Positions 16,115-45,270 of a DNA stretch of 64,000 nucleotides are shown here, piece by piece (the first letter of the stretch is position 1; each line of letters opens with the position of its first letter). Below the pieces are notes generated by a model. The model searched no databases. It was given only the letters and a program-made list of their open reading frames with translations, and was not told where the DNA came from. Location: the NCBI GenBank assembly GCA_965222505.1, contig OZ244956.1, positions 788,581-852,580 of the forward strand, in the 5' to 3' direction. The stretch is from Rhodothermales bacterium. Its GTDB lineage: Bacteria > Bacteroidota > Rhodothermia > Rhodothermales > DATKEJ01. The position numbers and the translations under genes were made by a program.

Positions 16115-16426
16115 CTAGTTGCAGCGCTCCTGTAGGTCCTTGATCCAGGCAAGGGGTAGGCCACCACCGGCCATGCCTCGGATGTATTGGTAGTCGGTAT
16201 CGCTGTTGCGCATGAAGCGCTGTTGGTCCTCACGGATCTCCTTGAACCCTACAGATACCGGTTCGCCCACGCGGCGGGCTTGTTCCCGGATGTAGACGGG
16301 TTCACGTTCAAAGGGCCGAGCCTGCTCCGGTACACAAATCCGATAGGCCATCGTCGCACCCCACACGATCAGAAAGAAAATGATCGGGATAATCACCATC
16401 ACGAAGAGGAGCGCAATCGGATGCAT
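16115..16426 (-). CDS. Small single-TM hypothetical protein at the distal end of the cox operon
   Basis: 103 aa; one hydrophobic helix; overlaps the subunit-IV gene stop by a few nt, consistent with co-transcription. Confidence 0.3.
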   Translation of the reverse strand: MHPIALLFVMVIIPIIFFLIVWGATMAYRICVPEQARPFEREPVYIREQARRVGEPVSVGFKEIREDQQRFMRNSDTDYQYIRGMAGGGLPLAWIKDLQERCN

Positions 16427-16437
16427 GGATATTCAAA

Positions 16438-16911
16438 CTATTGTGTCGGTCCCTTCGGATTGGGGAAGCGGGTAGAATCCGGGGTATTGACCAACGGCTG
16501 TGCCTCGAACTGAGGGCGTACGATTTCATCGCGTTCGCCGAGGACTTGTTCCTCAGCCTCGCGGTCTTTTACGGTAATCGCCTTGTCGGCCTCAAAAAAG
16601 CCGCGGAAATTGGTATCAAGCAGCGTGATACCGATGAAGACCAGCACAAACAGGGACCCCACGACGAACACCATCATGTTTACCCGAGTGTCATACCAGA
16701 GGGCCATAAAAAACATCACCACCAGTGCGGCCTTCGCTACTGCGATGGCCAGAGCCAGCGGCACGTTAAACATGCCGAGGTCTACATATTCGGCGGTCAG
16801 GTACGTCACAATCGTCAGGATGATGAGTGCGGCAAAGACGCCGTAGAGGATTTTCCACGGTGTCTTGTGGTGCCCGTGGTTTTCGTCGTGTGCAGTGTGT
16901 TCGGTTGCCAT
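16438..16911 (-). CDS. Cytochrome c oxidase subunit IV (prokaryotic caa3-type, CtaF/CoxD-like)
   Basis: 157 aa; three TM helices; His-rich N-terminus; positioned after subunit III. Confidence 0.55.
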   Translation of the reverse strand: MATEHTAHDENHGHHKTPWKILYGVFAALIILTIVTYLTAEYVDLGMFNVPLALAIAVAKAALVVMFFMALWYDTRVNMMVFVVGSLFVLVFIGITLLDTNFRGFFEADKAITVKDREAEEQVLGERDEIVRPQFEAQPLVNTPDSTRFPNPKGPTQ

Positions 16912-16958
16912 TCTTATGTGTGTTTAACCCATCTTTTTATGGGATGTACCTTCGGCGA

Positions 16959-17657
16959 TTAAATGAGGTACAACAGGGGAAAGAGGAAAATCCAGATGAT
17001 ATCAACCAGATGCCAGTACAGGCCGGTCAATTCTACCGGGGTGTAGTAGGCGCTGGAAAAGCGCCCTTTGATGGCTTTAACCAGGACCCAGATAAACACG
17101 CCGATGCCAACGAGCACGTGGAACCCGTGGATGCCGGTCATGACGAAGTAGATGCTAAAAAACTGTGGTGCATATGGGATGTTATAGTCGCCGTAGTTAA
17201 CGCCGTGGCTTTCCCCAAACGGTGCAAAACTGGCCCCTGGAAATACCCCATGCGAGAATTTTCCGGAGTATTCCACGTACTTGACGGCCATAAAGCAGAA
17301 GGCAAAAAAGATCGTCAGCAGGATACACACGATCAGGCCACGCTGGTTGTCATCCTGAATAAACCGAATGGCCATGGCCACCGTCAGGGATGAGGCCAGC
17401 AGCACGACGGTGTTCACCCCGCCCCAGAAGGGGTCCAGGAGTTCACTGGCTACGGTAAAGACTTCCGGGTACCACACCCGGTACACCACGTAGGCCACGA
17501 ACATCCCGCTGAAGAGCAGGATCTCCGTGATGAGGAAGAGCCACATGCCCATCTTGGACGCATCGAACTGCTGTTCCGAGGACACAAAGTGGTGATGCAG
17601 GTGGGCAGGATGATCGTGTTCGTGCACGTCCCCTGCATGAGCTACCGTTGTTGACAT
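16959..17657 (-). CDS. coxC: Cytochrome c oxidase subunit III
   Basis: 232 aa; conserved COX3 helices (...FFMAVKYVEY..., ...IYFVMTGIHGFHVLVG..., ...YWHLVDIIWIFLFPLLY). Confidence 0.9.
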   Translation of the reverse strand: MSTTVAHAGDVHEHDHPAHLHHHFVSSEQQFDASKMGMWLFLITEILLFSGMFVAYVVYRVWYPEVFTVASELLDPFWGGVNTVVLLASSLTVAMAIRFIQDDNQRGLIVCILLTIFFAFCFMAVKYVEYSGKFSHGVFPGASFAPFGESHGVNYGDYNIPYAPQFFSIYFVMTGIHGFHVLVGIGVFIWVLVKAIKGRFSSAYYTPVELTGLYWHLVDIIWIFLFPLLYLI

Positions 17658-17679
17658 CTACTTATTTGGGATAGTTAAT

Positions 17680-17775
17680 AAATGAAAACGTAGTTCGTAT
17701 TACGTATTGCGTAAGAGAAATCGCACTCATGTTTGAGGGCACCTTTACGCAATACGCGATACGCATTACAGAAAT
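17680..17775 (-). repeat. Structured intercistronic repeat element, copy A (coxA stop to coxC start)
   Basis: + strand: ...cgtattacgtattgcgtaagagaaatcgcactcatgtttgagggcacctttacgcaatacgcgatacgcattac... Arms cgtattgcgtaag / cttacgcaatacg, plus an extra tandem arm copy next to the upstream stop. Confidence 0.6.
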
Positions 17776-19508
17776 TATGCGTCGGTCTGTTCGGTCGGGG
17801 AGATCACCGGTTCATCGGCCCCACCATCGCCATAGAGTTCATCGACGTACTTGTATTCATACGGCCCACGTGTCACGATGGGCATTTTGGTAAAGTTGTG
17901 CGGATCCGGCGGGGTCGTGGTGGCCATCCATTCCAGCGTGGCCGCGCCCCAGGGGTTGGCTCCGGCCAGGGGTGCCTTCTTGCGCAAGGAGGCCAGGAGT
18001 GTAATCGCGGCGATCAACAGTCCCAGGGTCAGGACCAGGGAGCCGACCGTCGACATCTGGTGAAACTGCTGGAACAGGTCGATCAATTCCTGTTTGATCG
18101 GCTCGCCGGTTGCCATTTGCGAATAGTCGTGGTAACGGCGCGGCATGCCCTGGCTACCCAGGATGAACTGCGGGAAAAAGGTCAGGTTGAACCCGATGAA
18201 CACAAGCCCCGCGCCGATGGATGACCACAGCTGGTTGTACATCTTGCCGAACATCTTGGGCCACCAGTAGTGTACCCCGCCCAGGAAGGCGATCACGTTA
18301 CCGCCCATCATCGTATAGTGGAAGTGGGCCACCACGTAGTAGGTATCGTGCAGGTGGACATCGACGGCCAACACACCCAGCATCACACCGGTTACCCCAC
18401 CGATGGTAAACAGAAACAGGAAGGCCAGCGCATAAAGCATGGGTGTGCGTAACCACACCGAGCCCTTGTACATCGTAGCCACCCAGTTAAAGACCTTGAT
18501 CCCCGAAGGAATCCCGATCAGGTAGGTGATGAGTGAGAAGACAATCGAGGAGACTTCCGACTGGCCAGCCACGAACATGTGATGCCCCCAGACCAGGAAG
18601 CCGAGGAAGGCAATCGCCACCGAGGAAAGCGCGATGGGTTTGTATCCGAAGATGTTCTGGCGGGAGAAAGTGGTGACCAACTCCGAAATAATCCCAAAAG
18701 CCGGCAGAATCATGACGTAGACCGCCGGGTGCGAGTAGAACCAGAAAAAGTGCTGAAACAGCACCGCATCGCCCCCCAGGGCAGGGTCGAAGATACCGAT
18801 GCCCAGATAATGCTCCAGGAACAACAGCACCACCGTAATCCCGAGTACGGGCGTGGCAAGCACCTGAACGATAGCCGTCGAATACAGCCCCCAGATCATC
18901 AACGGGAGCCGGTTCCACGTCATACCCGGTGTACGCATCTTGTGGATGGTCACAATAAAGTTCAGACCCGTCAGGATGGACGAAAAGCCTGCCACAAACA
19001 CCGCCATGGTCATCCACCGGACCGCGTTACTTGCTTGCGAGGAATAGGGTGTATAAAAGGTCCATCCGGTATCCACCTCGCCGGCCAGAATGGCCGAGAC
19101 CGCCAGAATGGCCCCGGTAATGTAGAGGTAGAAGCTCGCCAGGTTCAGCCGGGGAAATGCGACATCCTTGGCCCCGATCATGATGGGCAACACAAAATTG
19201 CCCAGCGAGGCCGGGATCGCAACGAGGATGAAGAGAAAAATCATGATCGCTCCGTGGAGCGTATACACCTGGTTGTACGTATTGCTGTCCAGGAATTGTG
19301 TCCCCGGCGAAAACAACTCCAGCCGGATGATAACAGCCAAAAGCCCTGCAACAAAAAAGAACGTAACCACCGAGAACAAGTACATCAAACCGATGCGTTT
19401 GTGGTCTACGGTGAGCAACCAGGACATGATGCCCTTGGGATGTTTCAAGTAGTTGTGTTCGCCTTCATACCCCTTCGGGACGTTGGCTTGTACTGTGGTT
19501 GCACTCAT
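17775..19508 (-). CDS. coxA: Cytochrome c oxidase subunit I
   Basis: 577 aa; heme-copper oxidase signature (...[17 protein letters not shown]..., ...HHMFVAG...). Confidence 0.95.
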
Positions 19509-19581
19509 AGTCGGTCAGGTGAGGGTTTCTGGGTACCCGGGGGGGTAGCCCTATGCCTTCGAAAATCGCTAAACGCTAATA

Positions 19582-20601
19582 TTATTGAACGGACTTGATG
19601 TATTCAACCAAGGCCTGGACTTCGGTATCATCGAGTGTCATCATCGGCATCACATTCTGGTAGCCGTTGACGATTTTGGCGCCGGGTTCTACGATAGACT
19701 CGCGGAGGTATTCTTCGTCCACCTGCACGCTGGACCCATCGCTGAGTTGTTCCTGCCGCCCAAAAAGGCCCTGGAACGTTGGGCCGACTGTCGCCGAGCC
19801 GTCCAGGCTGTGGCAGGTGACGCATGCTTTCGTGGCGTAGAGGCCTTCGCCATATTCAGCGGTCGGCTCGGCATTCTCGACGGTATTGACCCATTCGGTA
19901 AACACATCTTCGGGAAGCACGTGGAGCCGGGTGGCCATCCGGGAGTGGGCATCCCCACAGTATTCGGTGCAGAACACCTGCACGAAGTCTGCCCCTTCTA
20001 CATCGGCCGTATTGCTGGTCAGTTCATTGGCGATGAACCAGATCGATGTATAGCGGTTGGGAATGACGTCGTGCTTCACCCGGAAATCAGGGATAAAGAA
20101 ACTGTGGAGGACGTCGTCGCTGGTCATGATGAGCTTGACCGGGCGGTCGATGGGCACCAGTAGTTCGTTGGTGACTTTGCCCGAGGGGTACTGAAATTCC
20201 CAGGCCCACTTGCGGCCCTTGACGTAGATTTCATACGCATCCGGCGGGGCCACTGTGACCTTTACAAAGGCACTGAACCCCCATACAAAAACGACCATCA
20301 CCAAAATAGTGGGCAGTACAGCCCAAGCCGTTTCAGTAATCTTGCTCGGATGCACGTCTTCCGCACGTTCATGAGCGTCTTTGCGGATGTACTTCCACAT
20401 CAGGTACAACATCCACGTCACCACACCCACCATGAGCGCAGCACTGGCCCAGTTGACGAAATAAAAGACTTCATCAATCACAGGAGCCAGGTTCGACTTC
20501 TGCGGGGGCATCCAGCCATACACGGCCCAGAGTACCGCCATCCCGACCAGGGAAAGCATTGAGATGATGAGGACCATGACACCGATATTACGATTTTTCA
20601 T
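19582..20601 (-). CDS. coxB: Cytochrome c oxidase subunit II with a fused C-terminal cytochrome c domain (caa3-type)
   Basis: 339 aa; CuA site ...FCTEYCGDAHSRM...; C-terminal CVTCHSLDG heme c motif. Confidence 0.9.
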   Translation of the reverse strand: MKNRNIGVMVLIISMLSLVGMAVLWAVYGWMPPQKSNLAPVIDEVFYFVNWASAALMVGVVTWMLYLMWKYIRKDAHERAEDVHPSKITETAWAVLPTILVMVVFVWGFSAFVKVTVAPPDAYEIYVKGRKWAWEFQYPSGKVTNELLVPIDRPVKLIMTSDDVLHSFFIPDFRVKHDVIPNRYTSIWFIANELTSNTADVEGADFVQVFCTEYCGDAHSRMATRLHVLPEDVFTEWVNTVENAEPTAEYGEGLYATKACVTCHSLDGSATVGPTFQGLFGRQEQLSDGSSVQVDEEYLRESIVEPGAKIVNGYQNVMPMMTLDDTEVQALVEYIKSVQ

Positions 20602-20673
20602 CGTATGCTTTATACGTCTAAGAAGTTAAAAGAGCGGCTGACGGCACAGCACCGGTCAGCCTTACACGTTTCC

Positions 20674-21483
20674 TTAAATACCAGCACGTTGACGTTGCCC
20701 TTCGCGCCGCCAAAACCAAATCAGCAACCCACCAAGCAACACCACCGTCAGCAGACCAGCCAAACGCATCACATTCAGGGCAATCGGCACGTACGAGCCG
20801 GCTTCCGGGTCATACTGAAAACAATATAAAATCAAACGGTCAATGGTAGAACCGATTTGTCCCTGCGAGGCTTCAATCAGCGAATTTCGCACATCGAAGG
20901 GTTCAAACGCGATGCCGTACATATACCGGGTAATCAGGCCCTCTCCGCTTAAAAAGACCAGCACCGCCGGGTGGGCGTACTGTTCGCCTGCTTCATCCCA
21001 AGCGTAGCCAAAACCCACCGCATCAGTAAGGCGACGAATATTGGCCTCATCACCCACGAGGAAGTGCCATCCATCGGCGGCTTCGGGTTTCCCCAGCCGC
21101 TCCACATACCGTGTTTTCTGGGTGGCAGCCTGTTGTGGTGTTTCCTCGTGCGAGAAGCTGACCGTCAAGATATCAAATTTTTCGCCAGGGACCCAATCCA
21201 TTTCTCGCAAAGAGGCTGTTAAGCCGTCCAGCAACAAACTACACAACATCGGGCACTCGTGGTAGGCCAGATTGAGCAACACCGGCCGTTTGCCGCCCAG
21301 GTAGTCTCCGAGGGTAACCGACTTTCCTTCGGCATCGGTGAAGACCAGATCCGTGGGAATCGTTTCGCCCAGGTGCTCTGTGACGTCAGCCTCTTTAAGC
21401 GAAGGCGGCAGCTCGTCCATGGCCTGAGCCCAGGCCCCTGTCGCTACGAACATCAAACAATATGTCAACAGCCACCTTATCAT
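20674..21483 (-). CDS. SCO1/SenC family copper chaperone
   Basis: 269 aa; CxxxC ...HECPMLC... plus conserved His region; location between the ACIII and cox operons. Confidence 0.8.
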   Translation of the reverse strand: MIRWLLTYCLMFVATGAWAQAMDELPPSLKEADVTEHLGETIPTDLVFTDAEGKSVTLGDYLGGKRPVLLNLAYHECPMLCSLLLDGLTASLREMDWVPGEKFDILTVSFSHEETPQQAATQKTRYVERLGKPEAADGWHFLVGDEANIRRLTDAVGFGYAWDEAGEQYAHPAVLVFLSGEGLITRYMYGIAFEPFDVRNSLIEASQGQIGSTIDRLILYCFQYDPEAGSYVPIALNVMRLAGLLTVVLLGGLLIWFWRREGQRQRAGI

Positions 21484-21534
21484 TCTTCAACTATATAACA
21501 GGACTACGCACATGGTCTCGGTCTTGCCCGAGCC

Positions 21535-21882
21535 TTACTCGGTGCCTGCATCCTGAATCACAAGTTCCATAGCCCGTTCAATCGGGATGCGGTAGATGCC
21601 CTGTTCGGCATCGACGACACCGTACTGGGTCAGCAAACGCTGGGCATCGGCATTGGCCTGACGCAGCATGACGGGTTGGGTCATACCGGTCACCTCTTGC
21701 TCCTGTGCATGTTCGGTTACGTTGATCCAGGCGACGACAGCCGTAATGGCAAACACCAAAAAGAGGAAGGTGCCAACAGCTATTTTCATGATGGCATGTG
21801 CAGAGATGCCTTCCGGCTCTACACCGGCGGCAACAATCGCTTCTTCTTCCGGCGTCAGGGGCAATGCGGGATCAGGAATCAT
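21535..21882 (-). CDS. Small single-TM protein at the distal end of the ACIII operon (possible ActG-like accessory subunit); the listed ORF 21535..22062 is N-terminally over-extended
   Basis: The real start is probably MIPDPALPLTPEEE..., followed by the TM helix KIAVGTFLFLVFAITAVVAWI. The first 60 codons of the tool ORF overlap repeat element C. Confidence 0.4.
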   Translation of the reverse strand: MIPDPALPLTPEEEAIVAAGVEPEGISAHAIMKIAVGTFLFLVFAITAVVAWINVTEHAQEQEVTGMTQPVMLRQANADAQRLLTQYGVVDAEQGIYRIPIERAMELVIQDAGTE

Positions 21883-21924
21883 GGATCGTTCAGGTTGTGC
21901 TATACAAAAAATGGGGTGCCATGA

Positions 21925-22042
21925 TGCGTGTTGCGTGAACTCAGGTTGGCATGTTCTGATAGGTGAACAAGCGTCGGTCCCTCCCGTGTATACGGTCGGT
22001 AATGTATGGACCGTATTCACGCAACACGTATCACGCAACACT
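21925..22042 (-). repeat. Structured intercistronic repeat element, copy C (actF stop to small ORF)
   Basis: + strand arms cgtgttgcgtgaa (21927) / ttcacgcaacacg (22016) plus a tandem tatcacgcaacac next to the actF stop. Shares aaaaatggggtgc...gcgtgttgcgtgaact with copy D. Confidence 0.6.
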
Positions 22043-23296
22043 TTAAGCATTTTCAAAGGCAATGGACCGGTTGTAATACCGATCTCCGTAGGCTACCAGA
22101 GCATGGCGATTGAAGCGCCAGACGGCCAGGCCAGCCAACAGAGCGACCAGCCCCAACCACAAGGCAAGATCAATCAGGGCTGGGTGAAATCCGTGGTCAT
22201 GCACCGGCATCGCGATCCAGTACAGATCCACATAATGCGCCAGGAAGAACCACACGGTAAAGAACCACAGCACCGGCTTCATGCGCTTGACAGCCCGGAA
22301 CATCAGCGCAAGGAACGGGAACAGGAAGTGCCCGAAAATGAGGAACGTGGCGAGGGTTTCCCAGCCATTTTCCAGCCGATGACGGAACCACAACGTTTCT
22401 TCAGGCAGGTTGCCATACCAGTAGAGCATGTACTGGCTGAAAGCGATGTACGTCCAGAACACCGTGAAGGCAAACATGTACTTGCCGAGGTCATGGTAAT
22501 GCTCGGGCGTGATCACATGGCTCAGCTTGCCTGCACGCTGGATGAACAGGACGGCCATCGTAATCGCTGCCAACGTCACAAACCATGAGCCCGCAAAGTA
22601 ATACACGCCGAACATCGTCGAGAACCAGTGCGGGTCCAGCGTCATCAGCAGGTCGATACCCACGAAGGCCGTTGTGAGGGCAAACGCCAGTAGGCCCCAG
22701 CCGCTGGTAAAGCGCAACTGCTTGGAGCGGTCCTCGCCCGTCAAATCCTGATGGATTGAGTTGGAAAAAAGTTTATAGGACGAGTAGATCCAGATGGCAA
22801 AGTAAATCACGTACCGGGCGATGAAGAACGGCGTATTCAAATAGCCCTGTTTGCCGGCCAGGATTGGGTCGTAATGTGCACCGCCTACTTCGTAGAGGTC
22901 TTCATGCGTCCAGTGGTAGAGGTCGTGCATCCCGAGCAGGATGGGGATCCCCAACACAAACAGCACCGGAAAGCTCATCATCAGGATTTCGGGAATACGC
23001 CGAACGGTGGCACTCCAGTAGGCCTGTGTGATATGGTGGATCATCACAAAAAACCAGCTTCCCAGCGCAATCGACAGACAGAAGGTGTAGCCGATCAGGT
23101 AGGAGAAGTAGAAGCGGGAGGAAAACAGGTGCCCGTCTTCACCCCCCAGGCCCAGGATAACGCCCAGCACCAGCAGGACTGCACCGACGCCAACGAGCAG
23201 TTGCCACGTGCGGCTTTGCGCACCTAGGCGAAACTCGGGGGGGGCCGCCTCATCCGAGCGGCGTACCGGGTCAAAAAGTCTAAGCAACGGATTCAT
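22043..23296 (-). CDS. actF: Alternative Complex III subunit ActF (NrfD-like membrane subunit)
   Basis: 417 aa polytopic membrane protein, homologous to ActC; position in the cluster. Confidence 0.8.
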   Translation of the reverse strand: MNPLLRLFDPVRRSDEAAPPEFRLGAQSRTWQLLVGVGAVLLVLGVILGLGGEDGHLFSSRFYFSYLIGYTFCLSIALGSWFFVMIHHITQAYWSATVRRIPEILMMSFPVLFVLGIPILLGMHDLYHWTHEDLYEVGGAHYDPILAGKQGYLNTPFFIARYVIYFAIWIYSSYKLFSNSIHQDLTGEDRSKQLRFTSGWGLLAFALTTAFVGIDLLMTLDPHWFSTMFGVYYFAGSWFVTLAAITMAVLFIQRAGKLSHVITPEHYHDLGKYMFAFTVFWTYIAFSQYMLYWYGNLPEETLWFRHRLENGWETLATFLIFGHFLFPFLALMFRAVKRMKPVLWFFTVWFFLAHYVDLYWIAMPVHDHGFHPALIDLALWLGLVALLAGLAVWRFNRHALVAYGDRYYNRSIAFENA

Positions 23297-23328
23297 AGAT
23301 CTCGTCGGTATTCAAATGAGGAAGAAGC

Positions 23329-23991
23329 CTACTGGCCGAGGCCCACGTTGGGGCTTTCGTTCTGAATGTTTTGCATCCGGTCTGCGGGTACATCGCCTGC
23401 ACCGGCATACTGGCTGCGCTGCAAGGCCCGAATGTAGGCCACAATGGCCCAGCGGTCCTCGACGGGAATGTGATACCCGTACGCCGGCATGTTGCGAACG
23501 CCGTTGGAAATCACGTCGAAGAGGTGGCCGTCCTCAACGCCCCGCAGGAAGTCGCTGTGGTACGTCGGCGCCGGTACATAGCCGTAGTTGCCCCGCATAA
23601 TCACGCCCAGGCCGTCGCCGGCTTGCCCGTGGCATGGGGCACAATAGATATTGTAACGTTTCTGACCGCGCTCCATTACAGCACGCGTGAGGGGAACAGG
23701 ATTGGTCTGAACCAGGGAGCCGTCGGCCTCTCGACCGAAATACAGGCGGGTGTCTTCCCGGAGGAAGCCCCGGGCAATCGTTCCCGGTACGGGCTGGCGC
23801 ATGGCCCGGCCGTCCGCGAAGAACGCGTTCGGTTCCTGGGCTTCAAACCGTTCCTGATAGTCCATGTTCAGGTTGGGGTGCACCGGCGGCTTGGAAGACG
23901 TCATGCCCCGGCAACCGGCCATAAACAGCAGCCCGAGGCAGAGGGCCGGGAGGAAGGTGAGGTGTTTCATGGATACCTTTTGGCTTGACAT
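23329..23991 (-). CDS. actE: Alternative Complex III subunit ActE (monoheme cytochrome c lipoprotein)
   Basis: 220 aa; signal/lipobox ...LFMAGC...; single CAPCH heme motif. Confidence 0.8.
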   Translation of the reverse strand: MSSQKVSMKHLTFLPALCLGLLFMAGCRGMTSSKPPVHPNLNMDYQERFEAQEPNAFFADGRAMRQPVPGTIARGFLREDTRLYFGREADGSLVQTNPVPLTRAVMERGQKRYNIYCAPCHGQAGDGLGVIMRGNYGYVPAPTYHSDFLRGVEDGHLFDVISNGVRNMPAYGYHIPVEDRWAIVAYIRALQRSQYAGAGDVPADRMQNIQNESPNVGLGQ

Positions 23992-24003
23992 ACAGGAGTG
24001 GGG

Positions 24004-24597
24004 TTAGGTGGAGGCGTCGGCATCCACCACACCGTGATCCTCAATCACTTCAATGTGGGTCGCGCCCAGTTGCTTGAGCAGATCGCCCGCCTGGGTGATG
24101 TCGAATTGGGGATCTTTGGCCTCAATGTGGAGGAAGAACCCGTCGTCCGTGGCTCGGGCAAAGCGCTCGGAGTAAAACAGGGGATTGTACGGTTTGGGCA
24201 GTCCGTTCAGGGCCAGCATGCCGCCCACAGCGGTCAGGGCCGAAAACAGGATGGTCAGTTCGAACATGATGGGCACGGAAGGCTCCAGTGCAAAAAACGG
24301 CTTGCCGCTGATGTTGAGTGGATAATCCACCCCTCCCATCCAGTACTGCATGTAGAACCCGGTGAAGCAACCCGTAATTGCCCCGATGAAGATGATAAAG
24401 CCGAGCTTGGAATCCCCCAGTCCCATTGCCCGGTCCATGCCGTGGATGGGGAATGGACTGTAGGTATCGAACCGTTTAAAGCCGGCCTCGCGCACCCCGT
24501 GGGCCGCGTGGTAGAGCGCGCCGGGGTTGGCAAATTCGCCGAGGACCCCGTAAGTCGTGCCCGTCTCCGGCTTGGAACCAAACAATGAACTTAGCAT
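24004..24597 (-). CDS. actD: Alternative Complex III subunit ActD
   Basis: 197 aa; DUF3341-like; one TM segment; position between actC and actE. Confidence 0.75.
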   Translation of the reverse strand: MLSSLFGSKPETGTTYGVLGEFANPGALYHAAHGVREAGFKRFDTYSPFPIHGMDRAMGLGDSKLGFIIFIGAITGCFTGFYMQYWMGGVDYPLNISGKPFFALEPSVPIMFELTILFSALTAVGGMLALNGLPKPYNPLFYSERFARATDDGFFLHIEAKDPQFDITQAGDLLKQLGATHIEVIEDHGVVDADAST

Positions 24598-24599
24598 GG

Positions 24600-24714
24600 T
24601 TTAATGTGGGTTATGCAAGTAATAAATCGTATGCTCGTATAGTATTTCGTAGTGCGTAAGGGAAGTTGCCCTGATGTGAGAGGGCACCCTTACGCAATAC
24701 GCATTACGCACTAC
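24600..24714 (-). repeat. Structured intercistronic repeat element, copy B (actC stop to actD start)
   Basis: + strand: ...cgtagtgcgtaagggaagttgccctgatgtgagagggcacccttacgcaatacgcattacgcactacg... Around 80% identical to copy A over the core. Confidence 0.6.
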
Positions 24715-26168
24715 GTTTCTGTTTCTGTTTCCGGTGAAGCCAATTCGGCATCGGCACTGTGGCCGTCTCCGTGCTCGTCATAAAAATGCGGGTTGGCTTC
24801 GGGCATCACACCCTTGACCTCGGCGATGGCAACCATCGGCACAAACCGCAGGAAGAGCAGGAACAGGGTCAAAAACAGGCCGAAACTCCCGACGAGCGTC
24901 AGCACGTCCACAATCGTGGGCGAAAAGTAGTCCCAACTCGACGGCAGGTAATCGCGGTGAAGCGATGTTACCGTAATCACGAACCGTTCGAACCACATCC
25001 CGATGTTGACCAAGATCGAGATCACAAACATAAGCGGGATGTTGCGCCGGAACTTCTTGAACCAGAAAAGCTGCGGGGCAAACACGTTGCAGCTAAACAT
25101 CGTCCAGTAGGCCCAGGCATACGGCCCGGTGGCGCGGTTAATGAAGGCATATTGTTCGTAGGTCACGCCGGAGTACCACGCGATGAAAAATTCCGTGATA
25201 TAGGCAAATCCGACGATTGACCCCGTCAGGAGCATGATGATGTTCATCTTCTCCAAATGGTTCAACGTAATCAGGTCCTCAATTTCGTACACCTTCCGGG
25301 CCGTGATCATAAGCGTTTGCACCATGGCAAACCCGGAGAAGATGGCCCCGGCCACAAAGTAGGGTGGGAAAATCGTCGTGTGCCATCCCGGGACGATAGA
25401 CACGGCAAAGTCGAACGACACGACCGAGTGTACAGAAAGCACCAGCGGTGTAGCCAAACCGGCCAGGATGAGATAGGCACGTTCGTAATGCCGCCAGTGC
25501 CGATTGGCACCCGTCCAGCCCAATGCAAGGGCACCCATCACTTTCTGCCGAATTTTGCCTTTGGCGCGGTCACGCAGCGTGGCCCAGTCCGGGATCAAGC
25601 CAACATACCAGAACAGCACCGATACGGTACCGTAGATCGTGACTGCAAACACATCCCACAACAGCGGACTCTTGAACTGCGGCCACATCAGCATCTGGTT
25701 CGGAATGGGCAGCGTCCAGTAGATCACCCAGATCCGTCCGACGTGAATGGTCGGGAACAAGAGCGCACAAACAACGGCAAAGATCGTCATGGCTTCGGCA
25801 GCCCGGTTAATCCCCGTGCGCCACTTCTGCCGGAACAGAAAGAGCACCGCCGAAATCAGCGTGCCCGCGTGGCCGATCCCGACCCAGAACACGAAGTTGA
25901 CGATGGCCCATCCCCAACCGACCGGGTTGTTCAGGCCCCAAACGCCGGTGCCGTTCCAAAACAACCAGGCGATCATGACAATCAGCGTCAGCAACCCGAC
26001 AACGGCCACCCCAAACAACGGGTACCAGAGCTTCGGCGGTTTCTTCTCAGCGTGTTTCGCCACCAGTTCGGTTACATCGTGGAAGGTATGCCCCCCTTCC
26101 ACCAGGGGTGGATCGGAAGCATGTCCGTCGCCGGAGATGCCGAGGTGTTGATCGTGTGTCGTACTCAT
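24711..26168 (-). CDS. actC: Alternative Complex III subunit ActC (NrfD/PsrC-like quinol-interacting membrane subunit)
   Basis: 485 aa polytopic membrane protein; NrfD-family topology. Confidence 0.85.
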
Positions 26169-26205
26169 TCGAAATTCTGAGTTTACGATTTACGTTGAAA
26201 ACGTA

Positions 26206-29200
26206 TTAAGAGACGTTTTCGAGGCTTGGGTTGGGATTGCGGAGCCGGGCCAGGTACGAGACCCGTGGTTTGACGGACAGTTCTTCGAGCAACTCATAGT
26301 TGCGCTCGTTCTGTTTCATCCGTACCACCTGGCTATTGGCATCGGTAAGGTCACCGAAGGTAATAGACTGCGAGGGGCATGCCTGCTGACATGCCGTCAG
26401 CACTTCGCCCTCGGCAATGCCCCGGCCCTCACGGCGGGCATCCTGGCCGGTCTTGCGAATGCGATGGATACAGAAGGAACACTTCTCCATCACCCCGCGG
26501 AACCGGACCGTCACGTTCGGATTCTGGACCATATGCACGGTGTCCGGCAGCGTCTTGGTCCAGTTGTAGAAATTGAACCGGCGCACTTTGTACGGGCAGT
26601 TGTTGGCGCAGTAGCGCGTCCCGATACACCGGTTGTAGGCCATCACGTTGATGCCGTCCGGGGAGTGCACCGTCGCGGCCACCGGGCAAACCGACTCGCA
26701 CGGGGCATTTTCGCAGTGCATACACATCACCGGCATGGTAACCATACCCGGTACATGCGTATCGTCCCCGGTATAGTACCGGTCCAGGCGAATCCAGCTC
26801 ATGTCCCGGCCCCGGCTGATCTGGTCTTTTCCGACGACCTGTATGTTGTTTTCGCTCTGGCAAGCTGCGACACAGGCATTACAGCCGGTACAGGTATTCA
26901 GATCGATGACCATCCCCCACTGCTGATCGGCGTACCGTGCGTCTGCATATCTTGGGTCTTTGGTCGGATGATCGTCCTCCCAAAGGGCGGGATATTCATC
27001 CCAGGGTTCAAGTTGCTGCCCTTCGCTTTCCAGCCGTTTAATTACATCACCGGCAAAGGTGGGCGTGGCCTTATATTCTTCAAGCGTTGCCATCCGGAAG
27101 ATGGGGCGGCCTTCCATGGAGCCGTGGTCCTGCGTGGTTGCCACCATGTACCCACCACCCGCTCTGCTCACCTGGGCACCGGATACAAAGGATGCCCCAG
27201 CCGAGCGCAGCGGCGCTACATTTTGGCCCACACCGTTTGCCAATGGACCCGCACTGTAGATATCGGCATCGATATCGTAAATCGGCACATCCGGGGGGAC
27301 CCGTGTGCTGTTGATGGCGCGGCCATAGCCGAGGTTCAGCGTCACGACGTCATCGGCATGGCCGGGGGCCACCCAGACGGGCAACTCAACCGACTGTCCG
27401 TTGGCGGAAATGGTAACGGTGTCTACGTAGTGTTTACCTGCATCGATTTCGTAACCGACGCCGAGGGCACTGGCCGTTGCCGGACTCATCATGGCGGCGT
27501 TGTCCCATGTGATCTTCGTCACGGCATCCGGGGTTTCCTGCATCCAGGCATTGTTCGAGAAACGCCCATCGTAGAGTTTGCCATCAGCGCGGAAGGACAA
27601 TTCAATGCCATCGGCTGTGGTGGGCAGGGCAGCCACAGCGGCACCAATCGAAGCGGCGCCGGGGCTGGCGGCTGCAAAGGCCGAATCGGCCAGGAAACCG
27701 TCATGGACCACTTTCCGCCAGGCGGCCTCATAATCGCCCGTCAGGACGCCGCGCCATCCGTTGCGGATAAGTTCAAAGCTGGAATCGGTGCCCCCAGCCA
27801 GGGCATTGACCACATCCAACGCAGAATGGGCATCCGGGTAAAGCGGGGCAACCAAGGGTTGTACCACAGAGCGGGTACCATCAAAGGCACGGCCGTCGCT
27901 CCAGGCTTCCAGATAATGGGCCTGCGGCAGGTGCCAGGCCGAAGCCTGTGCGGTTTCGTCTACCCAGAGGCCCAGGTGAATCGTGTTGGGCACCTGCCCG
28001 AGGGCCTGGGCAAAATTCAATCCGGCCGGCGCGTTATAGACCGGGTTCACGCCGATCATCAACAGGGTATCCACTTGCCCGGCACTCATGGACTGGGCCA
28101 GTGCAGCCAGGGCTTCGTCTTGCGGTTGCCGCTGGGCTTCACCGGTATTCAGCAACTGAACGGTTGTGCCAATGTTGCCAAGGGTCTGGTTGATGGCGGC
28201 ACACAAGGCATGCACAGCCGCAGGCTGGCCCGAACCGGACAACACAATCCCCTGCCCTTGATGGGCTCGCAGGTCATCCGCCAAGGCGGCAATCCAGGGG
28301 TGATCGGCGAAGGCGCTGCCAGCAGAAGCCGCTTCCGAGAGGCCGAGGCGGGCAGCCAGGGCCGCAGCAAATGCACCGATCTGGCTCGGCTTGAGCCGCA
28401 GGCGATGGTCGGCCATGCCGCCCGTGCCACTGAAGGCACTTTCAACCACGTAAAGCCGACTCATGGTGTCGCTGGTGGACATCACGCGGCGGCCATCGGC
28501 GTAGGTGCGAGCGTCGTGGGTATTATTGGGGTTGAGCGGCCCCAGAAAATCGGCATCCAGGCTCAGAATGACCTGGGCCTGATCAAATTGGTGAACGGTG
28601 CGGTAGGGCTGACCAAAGGCCATTTGTGTGCCTAGTGCAGCGTTATCGTCCCCGGTAGCTTCCCAGGTTACCCAGTTCAAATTCGGGTAGCGGGTGGCAA
28701 GCTGGGTGCGGAGTGCAGCCATCGTCGGCGAACTGCTGGCTTCGGCCAAAACGGCCACCTGGCCGCTCGGCTGATGGGTCCGGGCAAAGTCCGTAAAGTC
28801 ATCCCATGAAGCCGCCGTGTTACCGTGCAGTACGCGCTTGGAACGGTCTGGGTCGTACAGGTTCAGGATGGAAGCCTGCTGGAAGATGTTGGATGCGCCC
28901 TGGCTAACGGGGTGTTCGGTATTGCCTTCGACCTTCGTTGGTCGCCCTTCATGGCTTTCGACGAGCATCGGGTGCAGGACCCCGGCCATCGGCATGGCGG
29001 TGGCATAAAACAACGGCAACCCAGGAATCACTTCCTCGGGTTTGCGGCTGTAGGGTAGAATTTGTTCCACCGGACGGCGGCAAGCGGTCAGGCCGGCCAT
29101 CGCCATAGAGGCCCCCATCAGCTTGATAAAATCACGCCGGGAAGATGCCGTAGGGGCTTCAAGGGCATCCGGCGCAAATTCTTGCGCCTGTTGGGCCCGG

Positions 29201-29364
29201 AACGCCGGGGTCTGGTTATAATCCTCAAGGCTTCGCCAGGTCCGGGTGGTTTCGGATGCGCTGGCTTCAGCTTCGGCCGGACTCAGTACAGGAAGGTCGA
29301 GTAACATAGTCGAGGTATGCGTTCGCGGTGAACGTGGCAGGACATTAGTAGTGGCACGCGCCAC
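26206..29364 (-). CDS. actB: Alternative Complex III subunit ActB (fused molybdopterin-oxidoreductase-like domain plus 4Fe-4S ferredoxin domain), Tat-secreted
   Basis: 1052 aa; twin-arginine motif SRRDFIKLMGASMAMAGLTA; C-terminal Cys clusters (CTGCNACVAACQSEN, CMHCENAPCESVCPV, CIGTRYCANNCPY). Confidence 0.9.
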   Translation of the reverse strand: MARATTNVLPRSPRTHTSTMLLDLPVLSPAEAEASASETTRTWRSLEDYNQTPAFRAQQAQEFAPDALEAPTASSRRDFIKLMGASMAMAGLTACRRPVEQILPYSRKPEEVIPGLPLFYATAMPMAGVLHPMLVESHEGRPTKVEGNTEHPVSQGASNIFQQASILNLYDPDRSKRVLHGNTAASWDDFTDFARTHQPSGQVAVLAEASSSPTMAALRTQLATRYPNLNWVTWEATGDDNAALGTQMAFGQPYRTVHQFDQAQVILSLDADFLGPLNPNNTHDARTYADGRRVMSTSDTMSRLYVVESAFSGTGGMADHRLRLKPSQIGAFAAALAARLGLSEAASAGSAFADHPWIAALADDLRAHQGQGIVLSGSGQPAAVHALCAAINQTLGNIGTTVQLLNTGEAQRQPQDEALAALAQSMSAGQVDTLLMIGVNPVYNAPAGLNFAQALGQVPNTIHLGLWVDETAQASAWHLPQAHYLEAWSDGRAFDGTRSVVQPLVAPLYPDAHSALDVVNALAGGTDSSFELIRNGWRGVLTGDYEAAWRKVVHDGFLADSAFAAASPGAASIGAAVAALPTTADGIELSFRADGKLYDGRFSNNAWMQETPDAVTKITWDNAAMMSPATASALGVGYEIDAGKHYVDTVTISANGQSVELPVWVAPGHADDVVTLNLGYGRAINSTRVPPDVPIYDIDADIYSAGPLANGVGQNVAPLRSAGASFVSGAQVSRAGGGYMVATTQDHGSMEGRPIFRMATLEEYKATPTFAGDVIKRLESEGQQLEPWDEYPALWEDDHPTKDPRYADARYADQQWGMVIDLNTCTGCNACVAACQSENNIQVVGKDQISRGRDMSWIRLDRYYTGDDTHVPGMVTMPVMCMHCENAPCESVCPVAATVHSPDGINVMAYNRCIGTRYCANNCPYKVRRFNFYNWTKTLPDTVHMVQNPNVTVRFRGVMEKCSFCIHRIRKTGQDARREGRGIAEGEVLTACQQACPSQSITFGDLTDANSQVVRMKQNERNYELLEELSVKPRVSYLARLRNPNPSLENVS

Positions 29365-29992
29365 AGGTCTGCGGCGGTCGGATATTTTCCTGACGAATCC
29401 GCTCCAGGTTCAATTCGATATAGTTCGCCGGGCGTTGGTAACCCATCGTGGTCACTTCCGAGGGTGGGCGCAGATGTTCTTCCGGATTGCGATGGCACTC
29501 CAGGCACCAGCCCATCGACAAGGGTTGCGTTTGCTCCACGACAACCATCTGGTCGACGCGGCCATGACAAGACTCACACCCCACGCCCACATTCACATGC
29601 ACGGAATGGCTAAAGACCGCGTAGTCAGGCAGTTGGTGGACTTTCAACCACGGCACGGGATCGCCAGTAGCCCAGCTTTCCCGAACGGGAAGCAACTTAA
29701 GCGACTCGGTGCGAACCTGGCTATGGCAGTTCATACAGGTCTGCGTCGCCGGAATATTGGAGTGGGCGGCCTGCTGCACATAGCTATGGCAATACTGGCA
29801 ATCCAAACCCAACTGCCCCACGTGGAGCTCGTGACTGTACGGCACCGGTTGTTCCGGGGCATAGCCGACATCCGTAAACTTGGGAGAGAAGTAATACCAG
29901 ATAAGAAAGGTCAGAACGCCGCCGCCGACGATAACACCCAGCAGGGTAGCCATGGGCAGGCGGTTGGTCTTACGAGGAAATAGTTGTGGCAT
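29345..29992 (-). CDS. actA: Alternative Complex III subunit ActA (pentaheme cytochrome c)
   Basis: 215 aa; N-terminal TM anchor; five CxxCH motifs (CQYCH, CMNCH, CESCH, CLECH, CGACH). Confidence 0.9.
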   Translation of the reverse strand: MPQLFPRKTNRLPMATLLGVIVGGGVLTFLIWYYFSPKFTDVGYAPEQPVPYSHELHVGQLGLDCQYCHSYVQQAAHSNIPATQTCMNCHSQVRTESLKLLPVRESWATGDPVPWLKVHQLPDYAVFSHSVHVNVGVGCESCHGRVDQMVVVEQTQPLSMGWCLECHRNPEEHLRPPSEVTTMGYQRPANYIELNLERIRQENIRPPQTCGACHY

Positions 29993-30572
29993 ACGGCTTT
30001 GGTAAAGGATAAACCTCCGAAGCGGGATCTAGGTGTGGTGCTTCACCCATGGCGAAAATGTAGAATATGGGGCACCTTACGTGCTTTGAATTTAGGTTGA
30101 ATACAAACCTTTCAATATTTACAAAACCGGTTTTTGGGGCCCATTTTTGGGTGATGGTGAAAAACTACGAAATCCATCTTCCAGATGTGCAGAACCTGAC
30201 TTGCGGTTTTGTGAAGGTCTGTTGGCGTTGTAGCGAATTTGCGTCGAAGGACTTGCCAGGAAATACGACCGCCGGGCTTGTTGAAGGTGCGCGTTTTGTT
30301 TAAATTCCTGCAATTACATCAGATGTGACACCCCACTCCCCTGCGATGTCGACAACGTTCCACCCTCCGACATCAGAGTCTTTGGATTCGCATACTAAGC
30401 CTCAGGGCGGCTGGGCGAAAATGCACGCTTTGGGCCGAAACGAGTAGCCAACCCATAGGAAGCGGACCTCATCTAAAACATGCGAACCGGAAGTGAAGGT
30501 GTGTACATCTTTGCATTGGAAGGGCTGGTTCATCTGCAATGTGTGGCCCCTTTATGTGGGTGGATACTCCCG

Positions 30573-30609
30573 AACGCTCGGTCGAATTTGACCGAGCGTT
30601 ATTTTTTTG
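30573..30609 (+). terminator. Intrinsic terminator in the 5' leader about 100 nt upstream of nfeD
   Basis: aacgctcggtc-gaattt-gaccgagcgtt followed by atttttttg (11-bp stem plus T7). Confidence 0.7.
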
Positions 30610-30709
30610 AGACCAGGGGTCTGCAGCATCCCTTGATATTTTCTGCCACTTTCCAAAACTACCGTTCCTATCTTGGCGTATACACCGCTCATACTAAACA
30701 GAAACCGTC

Positions 30710-31327
30710 ATGGACACGATTTATCTGGTGTGCCTCGTTGTCGGCGGGTTCTTCGTGGCCCTGTCCATTTTTGGCGGTGGCGACTCGGAGACCGACGTGG
30801 ATGCCGATTTTGATGTGGATGTAGACGCCGATGCTGATTTTGATCTCGATGTAGATACGGACGCTGAGATCGAGCTGGAAGTCGATCACGCTGGTGGAGG
30901 GATCGGAGGCAGCGGGGTGGATTTTATTGATCTGTTCAGCCTACGCTTCATCTTTCTATTTGCGGCCTTCTTCGGCCTGACCGGTGTGCTGCTCCAGACC
31001 TTTGGTGCGCAAGAGCCCTTCACGTTCATCACTTCCCTGCTCATGGGCCTGGGCATCGGCCTGGGTGGCAATTACATCATCAAACGCTTTGGCTATCAGT
31101 CAGTATCCAGCGAAGTGACCCAGCGCGAGCTAGTCGGCCGCACGGCCAAGGTGATGCTCCCGTTTGACGGTGACGAGAAAGGCAAAATCCGCCTGCTTGC
31201 CCGCGAGCAGCAACTCAACTTAATTGCCCGTGGCGTCCCAGGGGCCGAAGAAACCTATGCGCCGGGAGATGAGGTCGTAATTGTCCGGCTCGACGGAAAT
31301 GTGGCAGAGGTGATCAAACCGACCTAG
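30710..31327 (+). CDS. nfeD: NfeD-family membrane protein (partner of flotillin/SPFH) with an acidic DxD repeat insert
   Basis: 205 aa; N-terminal TM, acidic repeat DVDADFDVDVDADADFDLDVDTDAEIELEVD, further TM helices, C-terminal OB-fold-like beta domain (...GRTAKVMLPFDGDEKGKIRL...VVIVRLDGNVAEV). Confidence 0.7.
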   Translation: MDTIYLVCLVVGGFFVALSIFGGGDSETDVDADFDVDVDADADFDLDVDTDAEIELEVDHAGGGIGGSGVDFIDLFSLRFIFLFAAFFGLTGVLLQTFGAQEPFTFITSLLMGLGIGLGGNYIIKRFGYQSVSSEVTQRELVGRTAKVMLPFDGDEKGKIRLLAREQQLNLIARGVPGAEETYAPGDEVVIVRLDGNVAEVIKPT

Positions 31328-31375
31328 TAGACCCCTGATTCGTTATCCTTGTATTGAAAAATTGAGGCTACCCCT

Positions 31376-32626
31376 ATGGAATTTGCTTTTATCATCGCCG
31401 GTGTTTTGATCGTTGCCTTTTTGGCTATCATTGGCATCGTCCAGGCGAACCTTAAAATTTGCCAGCCCAATGAGGTGCTGGTCTTTAGCGGCAAGCAACG
31501 CAAGATCAGCGACGGTTCCAGCGTGGGCTACCGGGTCATCAAGGGTGGACGCGGGTTTCGCATGCCGATCATTGAGAAAGTGGACCGGCTGGACCTGACC
31601 GTGATCCCTATCGATCTGCGGATCGAAAACGCCTATTCCAAAGGCGGTATCCCGCTGACAGTGCGTGGGGTAGCCAACGTTAAAGTGGCATCTGGTGAAC
31701 CAGAACTCAGTAACGCCGTCGAGCGCCTGCTCGGTAAACCGCGAGACGAAATCCAACTGATCGCCAAAGAAACCCTGGAAGGTAACTTGCGTGGTGTGCT
31801 GGCCCTGCTGACTCCGGAAGAGGTAAATGAGGACCGGCTCAAGTTCGCCAAAAGCCTCATCGAAGAAGCCGACATCGATATGAACGCCCTCGGTCTGCAA
31901 CTCGACACCCTCAAAATCCAAAGTGTCGAAGACGACCGGGGCTACCTTGATGCCATCGGGCGGCAACAAACAGCCATGATTATCTCCGCCGCCGAAATTG
32001 TTGAAGCCGAGCGCAAAGAACAAGCCCGGCTGGTGGAAGCCAAAGCCGACAAGTCCATTATCCAGGCCGAAAATGAAGTACGGCTTGAAAAGGCCCGGCT
32101 GGATGCCCTCGCAGAGGCCGAAGAAGCCAAGGTCAATGTAGCCGCAGATGTGGCCCGCGCCCGCGCCGAACAGGAACTGGCCGAACAGGAAATCCTGCTG
32201 GCCGAAAAACGGCAGCGCAGTGAAGTCATTATTGCCGCCGAAGCCCAGCGCCAGGCCAAGGAAGAACTCGCCAAAGGGAACGCCGCCCGTATCTTTGAAG
32301 ATGGCAAGGCCGAGGTAGAAGTCCTTCGCGAAAAAATGGCCCTCTGGCAAGAAGCTGGCCCTGATGCCGAAAAACTCTTCCTGATCCAGATGCTGCCGGA
32401 TATCATGCGCGAACTGGTCAGCACCGTGCGGGACCTGAAGATTGATAAGATCACCGTCGTCGACAGCGGCCAAAGCCAGGGTGGTGGCGTACCCGCCGTC
32501 TTCAACCAGATTGCCGGGTCTACCCCTGCCCTGCTGGAAAGCCTCAAGGCATCGACGGGCATCGACATCGCTGGCCTCCTCCAGGGAACCGCCTCCGATA
32601 CCCAGGGCACCGAACCTCCAGCATAG
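31376..32626 (+). CDS. Flotillin-like SPFH/band-7 protein (FloA/YqiK family)
   Basis: 416 aa; N-terminal TM, SPFH domain, long EA-rich coiled coil (...AEAEEAKVNVAADVARARAEQELAEQEILLAEKRQ...). Confidence 0.85.
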   Translation: MEFAFIIAGVLIVAFLAIIGIVQANLKICQPNEVLVFSGKQRKISDGSSVGYRVIKGGRGFRMPIIEKVDRLDLTVIPIDLRIENAYSKGGIPLTVRGVANVKVASGEPELSNAVERLLGKPRDEIQLIAKETLEGNLRGVLALLTPEEVNEDRLKFAKSLIEEADIDMNALGLQLDTLKIQSVEDDRGYLDAIGRQQTAMIISAAEIVEAERKEQARLVEAKADKSIIQAENEVRLEKARLDALAEAEEAKVNVAADVARARAEQELAEQEILLAEKRQRSEVIIAAEAQRQAKEELAKGNAARIFEDGKAEVEVLREKMALWQEAGPDAEKLFLIQMLPDIMRELVSTVRDLKIDKITVVDSGQSQGGGVPAVFNQIAGSTPALLESLKASTGIDIAGLLQGTASDTQGTEPPA

Positions 32627-32667
32627 GAAAACCGGGATAGACGACTGTCGTCAAAGACCTTCGGGCA

Positions 32668-32708
32668 CAAAAAAACGGCAGGCTGCTTTGAGCTTAAGCA
32701 GCCTGCCG
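32668..32708 (-). terminator. Intrinsic terminator for the BON-LysM gene (minus strand)
   Basis: + strand: aaaaaaa cggcaggctgctt-tgagctt-aagcagcctgccg; on the minus strand this reads as a hairpin followed by a U-run. Confidence 0.65.
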
Positions 32709-32732
32709 TACATGCTAGCGCATTCGAGCCTG

Positions 32733-33137
32733 TTACGGGTTCGGAATCACCAGTTCCTGACCAACCTGGATCAGGTCCGGGTTATTGAGTTGGTCCGTAT
32801 TGGCATTGAAGATGGCCATGTACTTCATGGCATCGCCGTAGTAATGCTTGGCAATCTTGCTCAGGGACTCACCGGAGGTAACCGTGTGCTTGTGGTAATA
32901 GTCGGTGTTTTTTACACGGATATCGGCGCCGATATCCGTGGGGCTATTACCGCCAATTTCCTTGATCTTGTCCCAGAGGAGGTTTTTCTCATACGGGGTA
33001 TTCACGTGACCACCAATTTTCAGCTTCCCTTCTACTTCCTTCACGTATCCATCGGTAACGCCAAGTTCTTCGCCCAGGTTGAGCACGGGCTGATATTTTG
33101 CTTGCAGCGACATAGTGTGTTGTTGGTTTTGGTACAA
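32733..33137 (-). CDS. BON-domain plus LysM-domain protein (Kbp/YgaU-like)
   Basis: 134 aa; N-terminal BON-like region (...VKEVEGKLKIGGHV...); C-terminal LysM (HTVTSGESLSKIAKHYYGDAMKYMAIFNANTDQLNNPDLIQVGQELVIP). Confidence 0.7.
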   Translation of the reverse strand: MYQNQQHTMSLQAKYQPVLNLGEELGVTDGYVKEVEGKLKIGGHVNTPYEKNLLWDKIKEIGGNSPTDIGADIRVKNTDYYHKHTVTSGESLSKIAKHYYGDAMKYMAIFNANTDQLNNPDLIQVGQELVIPNP

Positions 33138-45210: not shown

Positions 45211-45242
45211 AAAAAAAAGCGGAAACACGAACCGTGTTTCCG
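45211..45242 (-). terminator. Intrinsic terminator downstream of the M23 peptidase gene
   Basis: + strand aaaaaaaa gcggaaacacg-aacc-gtgtttccgc; on the minus strand this is a hairpin followed by U8. Confidence 0.75.
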
Positions 45243-45270
45243 CTGAAATAGGGGTATGGAGCCCAACTGC

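Follow-up and report, generated by a model that had tools for sequence, protein, structure and literature searches.

A terminator-bearing, lineage-specific insertion between the divergent actA-like and nfeD genes of a Rhodothermales bacterium

In a Rhodothermales bacterium, the actA-like and nfeD genes are transcribed divergently from a spacer that holds a Rho-independent terminator on the nfeD strand. The question raised by this locus is whether the terminator belongs to a regulatory leader of the NfeD-flotillin operon, ends an independent RNA, or is a remnant with no selected role. A sequence-only reading of the window (the whole 64-kb stretch of DNA analysed here) had described a divergent leader of about 700 nt, and it offered two explanations: an independent small RNA (sRNA), or an attenuator or riboswitch controlling the operon. 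By the open reading frame (ORF) calls in the window, the spacer between the two genes is 717 nt long (29993-30709), in agreement with that description.

The gene to the left of the spacer (29345-29992, minus strand) encodes an ActA-like pentahaem cytochrome c of 215 aa with five CxxCH motifs, which matches Pfam Cytochrome_C7 and a QrcA-like NCBIfam model. The neighbour of the ActA-like protein is a 1052-aa, QrcB/QrcC-like protein, consistent with ActB. The actA-like gene is the first gene of an ACIII/oxidase operon that extends on the minus strand to about 16115. From 16115 to 29992, a long run of same-strand genes separated by short gaps lies downstream of actA/actB, and this run presumably represents a super-operon for ACIII and a terminal oxidase; on that gene arrangement, the control region at 29993-30250 may govern about 14 kb of respiratory genes. 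In the record of the source genome (P0121), ActA has 202 aa and begins at an internal Met (29954-29992 region). The ActA homologues among the matches listed have 214-215 aa, nearly all of them 215 aa, suggesting that the annotated start is probably 13 codons short and that the true start is the ATG at 29992.

To the right of the spacer, nfeD (30710-31327, plus strand) was identified by its homologues, which are annotated as NfeD, and by its position before a Band_7/FloT flotillin gene (31376-32626, plus strand), with which it forms an operon (30710-32626). Its product scores 21 bits against PF01957, under the gathering score. Residues ~25-60 of NfeD (30782-30890), after the first hydrophobic segment, form an acidic low-complexity repeat (DSETDVDADFDVDVDADADFDLDVDTDAEIELEVD). 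Rhodothermales homologues contain similar D-rich peptides as well, and this acidic stretch supplied the peptide patterns for the search for nfeD loci.

The terminator occupies 30573-30609 on the plus strand. It consists of a 12-bp stem (30573-30584 / 30589-30600) with 11 Watson-Crick pairs and one G-U pair, seven of the 12 pairs being G-C, an AATT loop, and an A+T7+G tail (A30601, T30602-30608, G30609); the energy of the hairpin is -19.5 kcal/mol. From the end of the T-run to the nfeD ATG (30710) there are 101 nt. Perfect stems of 8 bp or longer with a T6 run behind them occur three times in the real 64 kb, compared with a mean of 0.01 per window in 100 dinucleotide-preserving shuffles. The canonical plus-strand terminator that had been reported about 100 nt before the nfeD start is therefore confirmed in structure and position, and it stands far above the shuffles. 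The other two strong terminators of the window lie at 32676-32708 and 45219-45243, both on the minus strand and about 25 nt past stop codons, with perfect stems of 13 bp and 11 bp and T7/T8 runs. The one at 32676-32708 comes after a LysM-domain gene, between this gene and the convergent flotillin gene, and the latter has no plus-strand terminator of its own; the one at 45219-45243 follows the gene at 45271-46371. Their location at gene ends shows that this genome uses canonical intrinsic terminators. The hairpin at 30573 is the sole one of the three without a gene ahead of it. On the minus strand no T-run follows the hairpin, so the terminator should act on the plus strand only. A GC-rich stem-loop, an adjacent U-tract, a frequency above chance and likeness to the genome's own type were all found, and from these sequence features the terminator probably ends some plus-strand transcript.

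The same divergent actA/nfeD layout is present in five relatives. The closest of them, L025, is a 2,093-bp Logan contig and the only relative alignable with the window at the DNA level; its NfeD, ActA and flotillin N-terminus are 80%, 87% and 95% identical to those of the window, respectively, and its spacer is 349 nt long. In this alignment, 29993-30252 and 30615-30709 match well, and the part from about 30253 to 30614, with the terminator, falls in a clean gap of about 360 nt. The remaining spacers measure about 297 nt in L031 (NfeD 67% identical), 221 nt in L027 (about 55%), 503 nt in L026 (about 50%) and about 335 nt in L029, where the nfeD-like ORF is truncated. Neither DNA similar to the insert nor a strong terminator on the nfeD strand was found in these five loci. 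The hairpin is therefore not conserved upstream of nfeD/floT, an outcome that the sequence-only reading had itself named as counting against its proposal. Since L031, which is more distant than L025, is also without the segment, a single gain in the lineage of the window is the most parsimonious explanation. As judged from these alignments, 30253-30614 (plus strand) is a lineage-specific non-coding insertion of ~357-362 nt and not a conserved leader. The pentanucleotide CCAGG is present at both of its junctions (30256-30260 and 30613-30617). In L026, an unrelated GC-rich expansion of about 280 nt (2600-2950 of that locus) occupies the equivalent spot, suggesting that the actA-nfeD spacer has gained DNA independently at least twice. 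The nfeD loci L001-L005 and L028, from distant Rhodothermales, do not have actA as the neighbour and were left out as spacer outgroups.

The divergent control region to the left of the insert (29993-30252) comprises the actA 5' UTR, a promoter/operator and further blocks, and is common to L025. The two sequences are 70% identical here, with long blocks at 100% that include GGTGTGGTGCTTC, GCGAAAATGTAGAA, AAACTACGAAATC and TTTTGTGAAgGTCTGT...GAATTTGCGTnGAAGG. Third codon positions are 57% identical in actA and 47% in nfeD, that is, synonymous sites are near saturation, and the higher identity of the spacer blocks therefore indicates that these non-coding blocks are under selection. Codon positions 1 and 2 of nfeD are 89-90% identical, and their contrast with position 3 points to purifying selection on this gene; the sequence comparison indicates that nfeD-floT and actA are still under purifying selection. 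The AT-rich region noticed previously is real as well, with a GC content of 0.38-0.39 at 30050-30199 versus 0.55-0.63 in the flanking genes.

About 70 nt upstream of the actA ATG, TACATTTT (30055-30062, minus strand) is a candidate for the -7 box, of the Bacteroidota type, in the actA promoter, and TA(n)nTTTG/T boxes are found at the same offset from actA in L025, L027, L030, L031 and L034. In Flavobacteria, the -7 consensus for sigma-A is TAnnTTTG (PMC9723704), and the promoter positions -33 TTG and -7 TTT have been reported (PMC8552683). In the window, strict TAnnTTTG has 25 matches versus 21.5 expected and is thus not enriched, so the promoter assignments remain weak. A direct repeat with an 11-bp period, TTGAAT-N5-TTGAAT (30086-30102, plus strand), is the actA-proximal candidate for an activator site. 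It occurs once in the window at zero mismatches. Six lineages have the repeat 92-126 nt ahead of actA, namely that of the window and L025 (937-953), L027 (2868-2884), L029 (513-529), L030 (2355-2371) and L031 (530-546), and it was absent from the other 26 loci compared. A sigma-70 gene takes the place of nfeD as the upstream neighbour in L030, which indicates that the repeat belongs to actA. On the actA strand, five lineages have the TTTG/TTTT core of a TA(n)nTTTG-like box 26-27 nt after the repeat core TAAATTCAA, and the more distant Rhodothermales L032-L037 retain CTAAATTCAA. The repeat has the look of an activator site of the response-regulator type, with its centre around -41/-52 of the ACIII operon promoter.

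Two more conserved blocks lie closer to the insert: AAACTACGAAATC at 30162-30174, and TTTTG-N22-(c)GAATTTG at 30207-30241 on the plus strand, which stops about 10 nt short of the insertion point. The latter is identical to L025 in both sequence and spacing, and GAGAATTTG is also present in L031. In these two relatives, which are without the insert, the block lies 85-99 nt upstream of nfeD, and T-rich ...TTTG boxes occur 50-112 nt ahead of nfeD in other Rhodothermales. Its spacing is slightly above canonical. From conservation and position, the block at 30207-30241 is a plausible ancestral plus-strand (nfeD) promoter; the blocks at 30162-30174 and 30207-30251 may serve as the nfeD promoter or, with TAGTTTTT on the minus strand (30160-30167), as a distal promoter for actA. 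The 8-mer CGAATTTG, shared by the terminator loop and a conserved block, was judged to be a chance match, with about four shared 8-mers expected in 717 nt.

The insert itself was searched for coding, structural and homologous content. The ORFs of the spacer (32-114 aa) score -0.36 to +0.04 bits/codon versus +0.18 to +0.59 in real genes, and are without the GC1/GC2/GC3 pattern typical of the latter. Exact look-up of these ORFs returned no protein on record, the six-frame peptides of the spacer had no Pfam match at E<=1, and the concatenated six-frame translation of 30250-30640 gave nothing at E<=10 against 5.8 billion proteins. The sequence-only reading had recognised no known riboswitch class upstream of the terminator, and the covariance-model scan came to the same result: no Rfam 15 family matched 28000-33000 at E<=1 or any part of the window at gathering score. 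ARAGORN found no tRNA or tmRNA. When sub-regions were folded on both strands, only the terminator stood out and nothing upstream was significantly better than shuffles; the z-scores were -1.7 for 30250-30612 (mostly due to the terminator), -1.8 for 30440-30572 and -0.5 for 30313-30440. Duplex searches and partial folds upstream of the terminator revealed no credible antiterminator: the best pairing to the 5' arm is a discontinuous duplex of -21.7 kcal/mol, an energy reached by 4% of shuffles (mean -17.4, sd 2.2). Therefore, the Rfam, coding, fold and pairing searches gave no indication that an aptamer, leader peptide or antiterminator is present. Meanwhile, BLASTN found no second copy of the insert in the 64-kb window, Smith-Waterman comparison with its own flanks found nothing significant relative to shuffles, direct and inverted repeat searches found no terminal inverted repeats at its ends, and no match was obtained among plasmids, phages and viral contigs. 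Among the usual marks of an sRNA gene, a terminator is present, coding potential is absent and promoter matches are weak; no homologue was found among the collections searched, and the fold z-scores range from -0.5 to -1.8. Duplexes with the translation-initiation regions of 51 window genes were also computed, and duplexfold on such long sequences gave unrealistic full-length duplexes.

With moderate confidence we read the feature as a fixed stop for transcription, or an insulator, that may also be a young locus of an orphan RNA; on this reading it is not a ligand-sensing switch. According to this model, a unique non-coding segment of ~357-362 bp was inserted in this lineage, with the actA/nfeD control region on its left and the ~95 nt that precede nfeD on its right, and it carries a strong constitutive Rho-independent terminator at its 3' end. 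Plus-strand transcription would start either at the TTTTG-N22-GAATTTG block, near 30248, or at a weak promoter within the insert, and would halt at ~30606-30609, the product being an orphan non-coding RNA of ~300-360 nt. A weak sigma-70-like candidate inside the insert, TTGTTG-N16/17-TGtTTAAAT/TAAATT (30278-30306, plus strand), was matched by a relaxed pattern only and fell below the threshold of a further scan. The nfeD-floT genes would be transcribed from within the ~100 nt that follow the terminator, or through residual read-through. The nfeD-proximal region (30615-30709, plus strand) is partly conserved with L025 (TTTCCAnAAC, TTCCTATCTT and TACTAAACnGAnACCGTC) and contains the window-specific TGATATTTT (30634-30642, plus strand), which resembles an extended -10 or a -7 box; this element, and the T7G tail of the terminator as a -7 mimic, are the candidates for a downstream nfeD promoter. 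If 30207-30241 were the only nfeD promoter, a strong terminator in the leader would be expected to shut off nearly all expression of an operon clearly under purifying selection. The fixed-stop model therefore needs a putative downstream promoter or putative read-through.

A further scenario, to which we assign a rather low probability, is promoter capture. Here the insertion would have occurred just downstream of the ancestral nfeD start, so that the old promoter would now drive a newborn, terminated non-coding RNA of ~360 nt, and nfeD-floT would have been re-promoted. The new promoter might derive from sequence brought by the insert or evolved beside it. The candidates would be again TGATATTTT and the terminator's T-tract with the G behind it, a sequence that resembles a TnnnTTTG -7 box and lies at the ancestral distance from nfeD.

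The insert might also be an inert relic, that is, leftover DNA such as the decayed 3' end of a gene or a mobile or recombination fragment, which carries a fossil terminator without a selected role while the nfeD-floT promoter lies downstream. This is a possibility to be taken seriously, though on the whole an unlikely one. It fits the confinement of the segment to the window lineage, the lack of significant structure apart from the hairpin, the absence of any homologue in plasmid, phage, viral and protein searches, and the fact that the other strong terminators of the window belong to protein genes; in addition, the unrelated ~280-nt expansion in L026 implies that the spacer tolerates insertions and deletions. 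However, no residual coding periodicity or protein similarity was detected in any frame, and a hairpin that is still intact, with 11 Watson-Crick pairs, one G-U pair and T7, argues for recent arrival or selection. The relic largely overlaps the fixed-stop model anyway, because a fossil terminator still terminates. A non-autonomous mobile element whose right end has a subterminal hairpin, for instance a MITE or a palindrome-associated element of the IS200/IS605 type, seems very unlikely. Compared with the orthologous sites the insertion is clean, its right end is ~12 nt away from the perfect hairpin, and 10 of the 11 nt that open the insert are complementary to 30579-30589; however, by estimate about one such 11-nt match is expected by chance per region of this size, and the true ends have no terminal inverted repeats. 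The 5-nt CCAGG at both junctions would suit such an element but is equally explained by microhomology. Moreover, the segment is single-copy within 64 kb, matches no plasmid, phage or viral contig, and has no ORF-level match among the 5.8 billion proteins.

The attenuator or riboswitch of the original proposal would place the insert in the nfeD 5' leader, with the terminator relieved by a ligand, a protein or a ribosome-dependent antiterminator. The geometry is suggestive, in that the terminator lies on the nfeD strand 101 nt before the gene and a promoter-like block ~10 nt before the insertion point may cause the insert to be transcribed as the nfeD leader, and purifying selection on nfeD-floT means that some read-through or bypass must exist. 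Nevertheless, there is no Rfam family at either threshold, the leader is missing from all five relatives with the same layout, the best 5'-arm pairing is discontinuous and equalled by 4% of shuffles, the upstream fold z-scores are -0.5 to -1.8, and no leader peptide has a coding signal. Thus neither family, fold, antiterminator nor conservation supports a riboswitch or attenuator that controls the NfeD-flotillin operon, and we give this reading little credence. Of the two explanations offered by the sequence-only reading, a terminated plus-strand RNA stands as a possibility, and the conserved cis-regulatory leader does not find support. A small protein gene ending at the terminator is extremely improbable. 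The two ORFs in question encode 32 aa (30493-30591) and 40 aa (30325-30447), and the first one has its stop codon within the hairpin loop, a common stop-to-terminator geometry; however, their codon-usage scores are negative, no gene is called there in the source genome or elsewhere, and neither a Pfam match nor conservation was found.

Compared with known systems, the hairpin resembles canonical intrinsic terminators in its GC-rich 12-bp stem, 4-nt loop and 7-U tract, and is built like the terminators at 32676-32708 and after the gene at 45271-46371. Unlike them, it has no recognisable gene or known RNA ahead and lies in a divergent promoter region. Young lineage-specific sRNA loci in intergenic regions may end in an intrinsic terminator, and the insert is similar to these in being non-coding, ~300-360 nt long, terminated at the 3' end, preceded by possible promoters and limited to one lineage; it differs in having no conserved seed or structure, no identifiable target and a weakly predicted promoter. 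With riboswitch and attenuator platforms it shares a sense-strand terminator upstream of the first gene of an operon, but not an aptamer, antiterminator pairing or conservation across orthologous operons. In Bacillus subtilis, the nfeD-floT operon (yuaF-floT-yuaI) is reported to be controlled by sigma-W, and it is not known to have a leader terminator. The NfeD gene directly precedes the flotillin gene in one operon in both organisms, whereas regulation in B. subtilis acts through an alternative sigma factor at the promoter. Among the titles and abstracts listed by a literature search, none describes RNA-based control of nfeD-flotillin operons.

As an intrinsic terminator, and possibly a young orphan RNA, the feature adds one more instance to known kinds and does not constitute a new class. 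For annotation, 30573-30609 should not be kept as a riboswitch candidate; it is better recorded as a one-lineage insertion with an ordinary terminator. Its value is modest, as a possible case of a terminator-bearing insertion tolerated before a conserved operon, or of the birth of a non-coding RNA. Promoter capture, if true, would mean that sRNA birth and operon rewiring have been caught in the act in Rhodothermales. A more general by-product is the TTGAAT-N5-TTGAAT / TAAATTCAA repeat upstream of actA, whose distance to a -7-like box is constant in several Rhodothermales lineages and which is a candidate operator for the regulation of alternative complex III.
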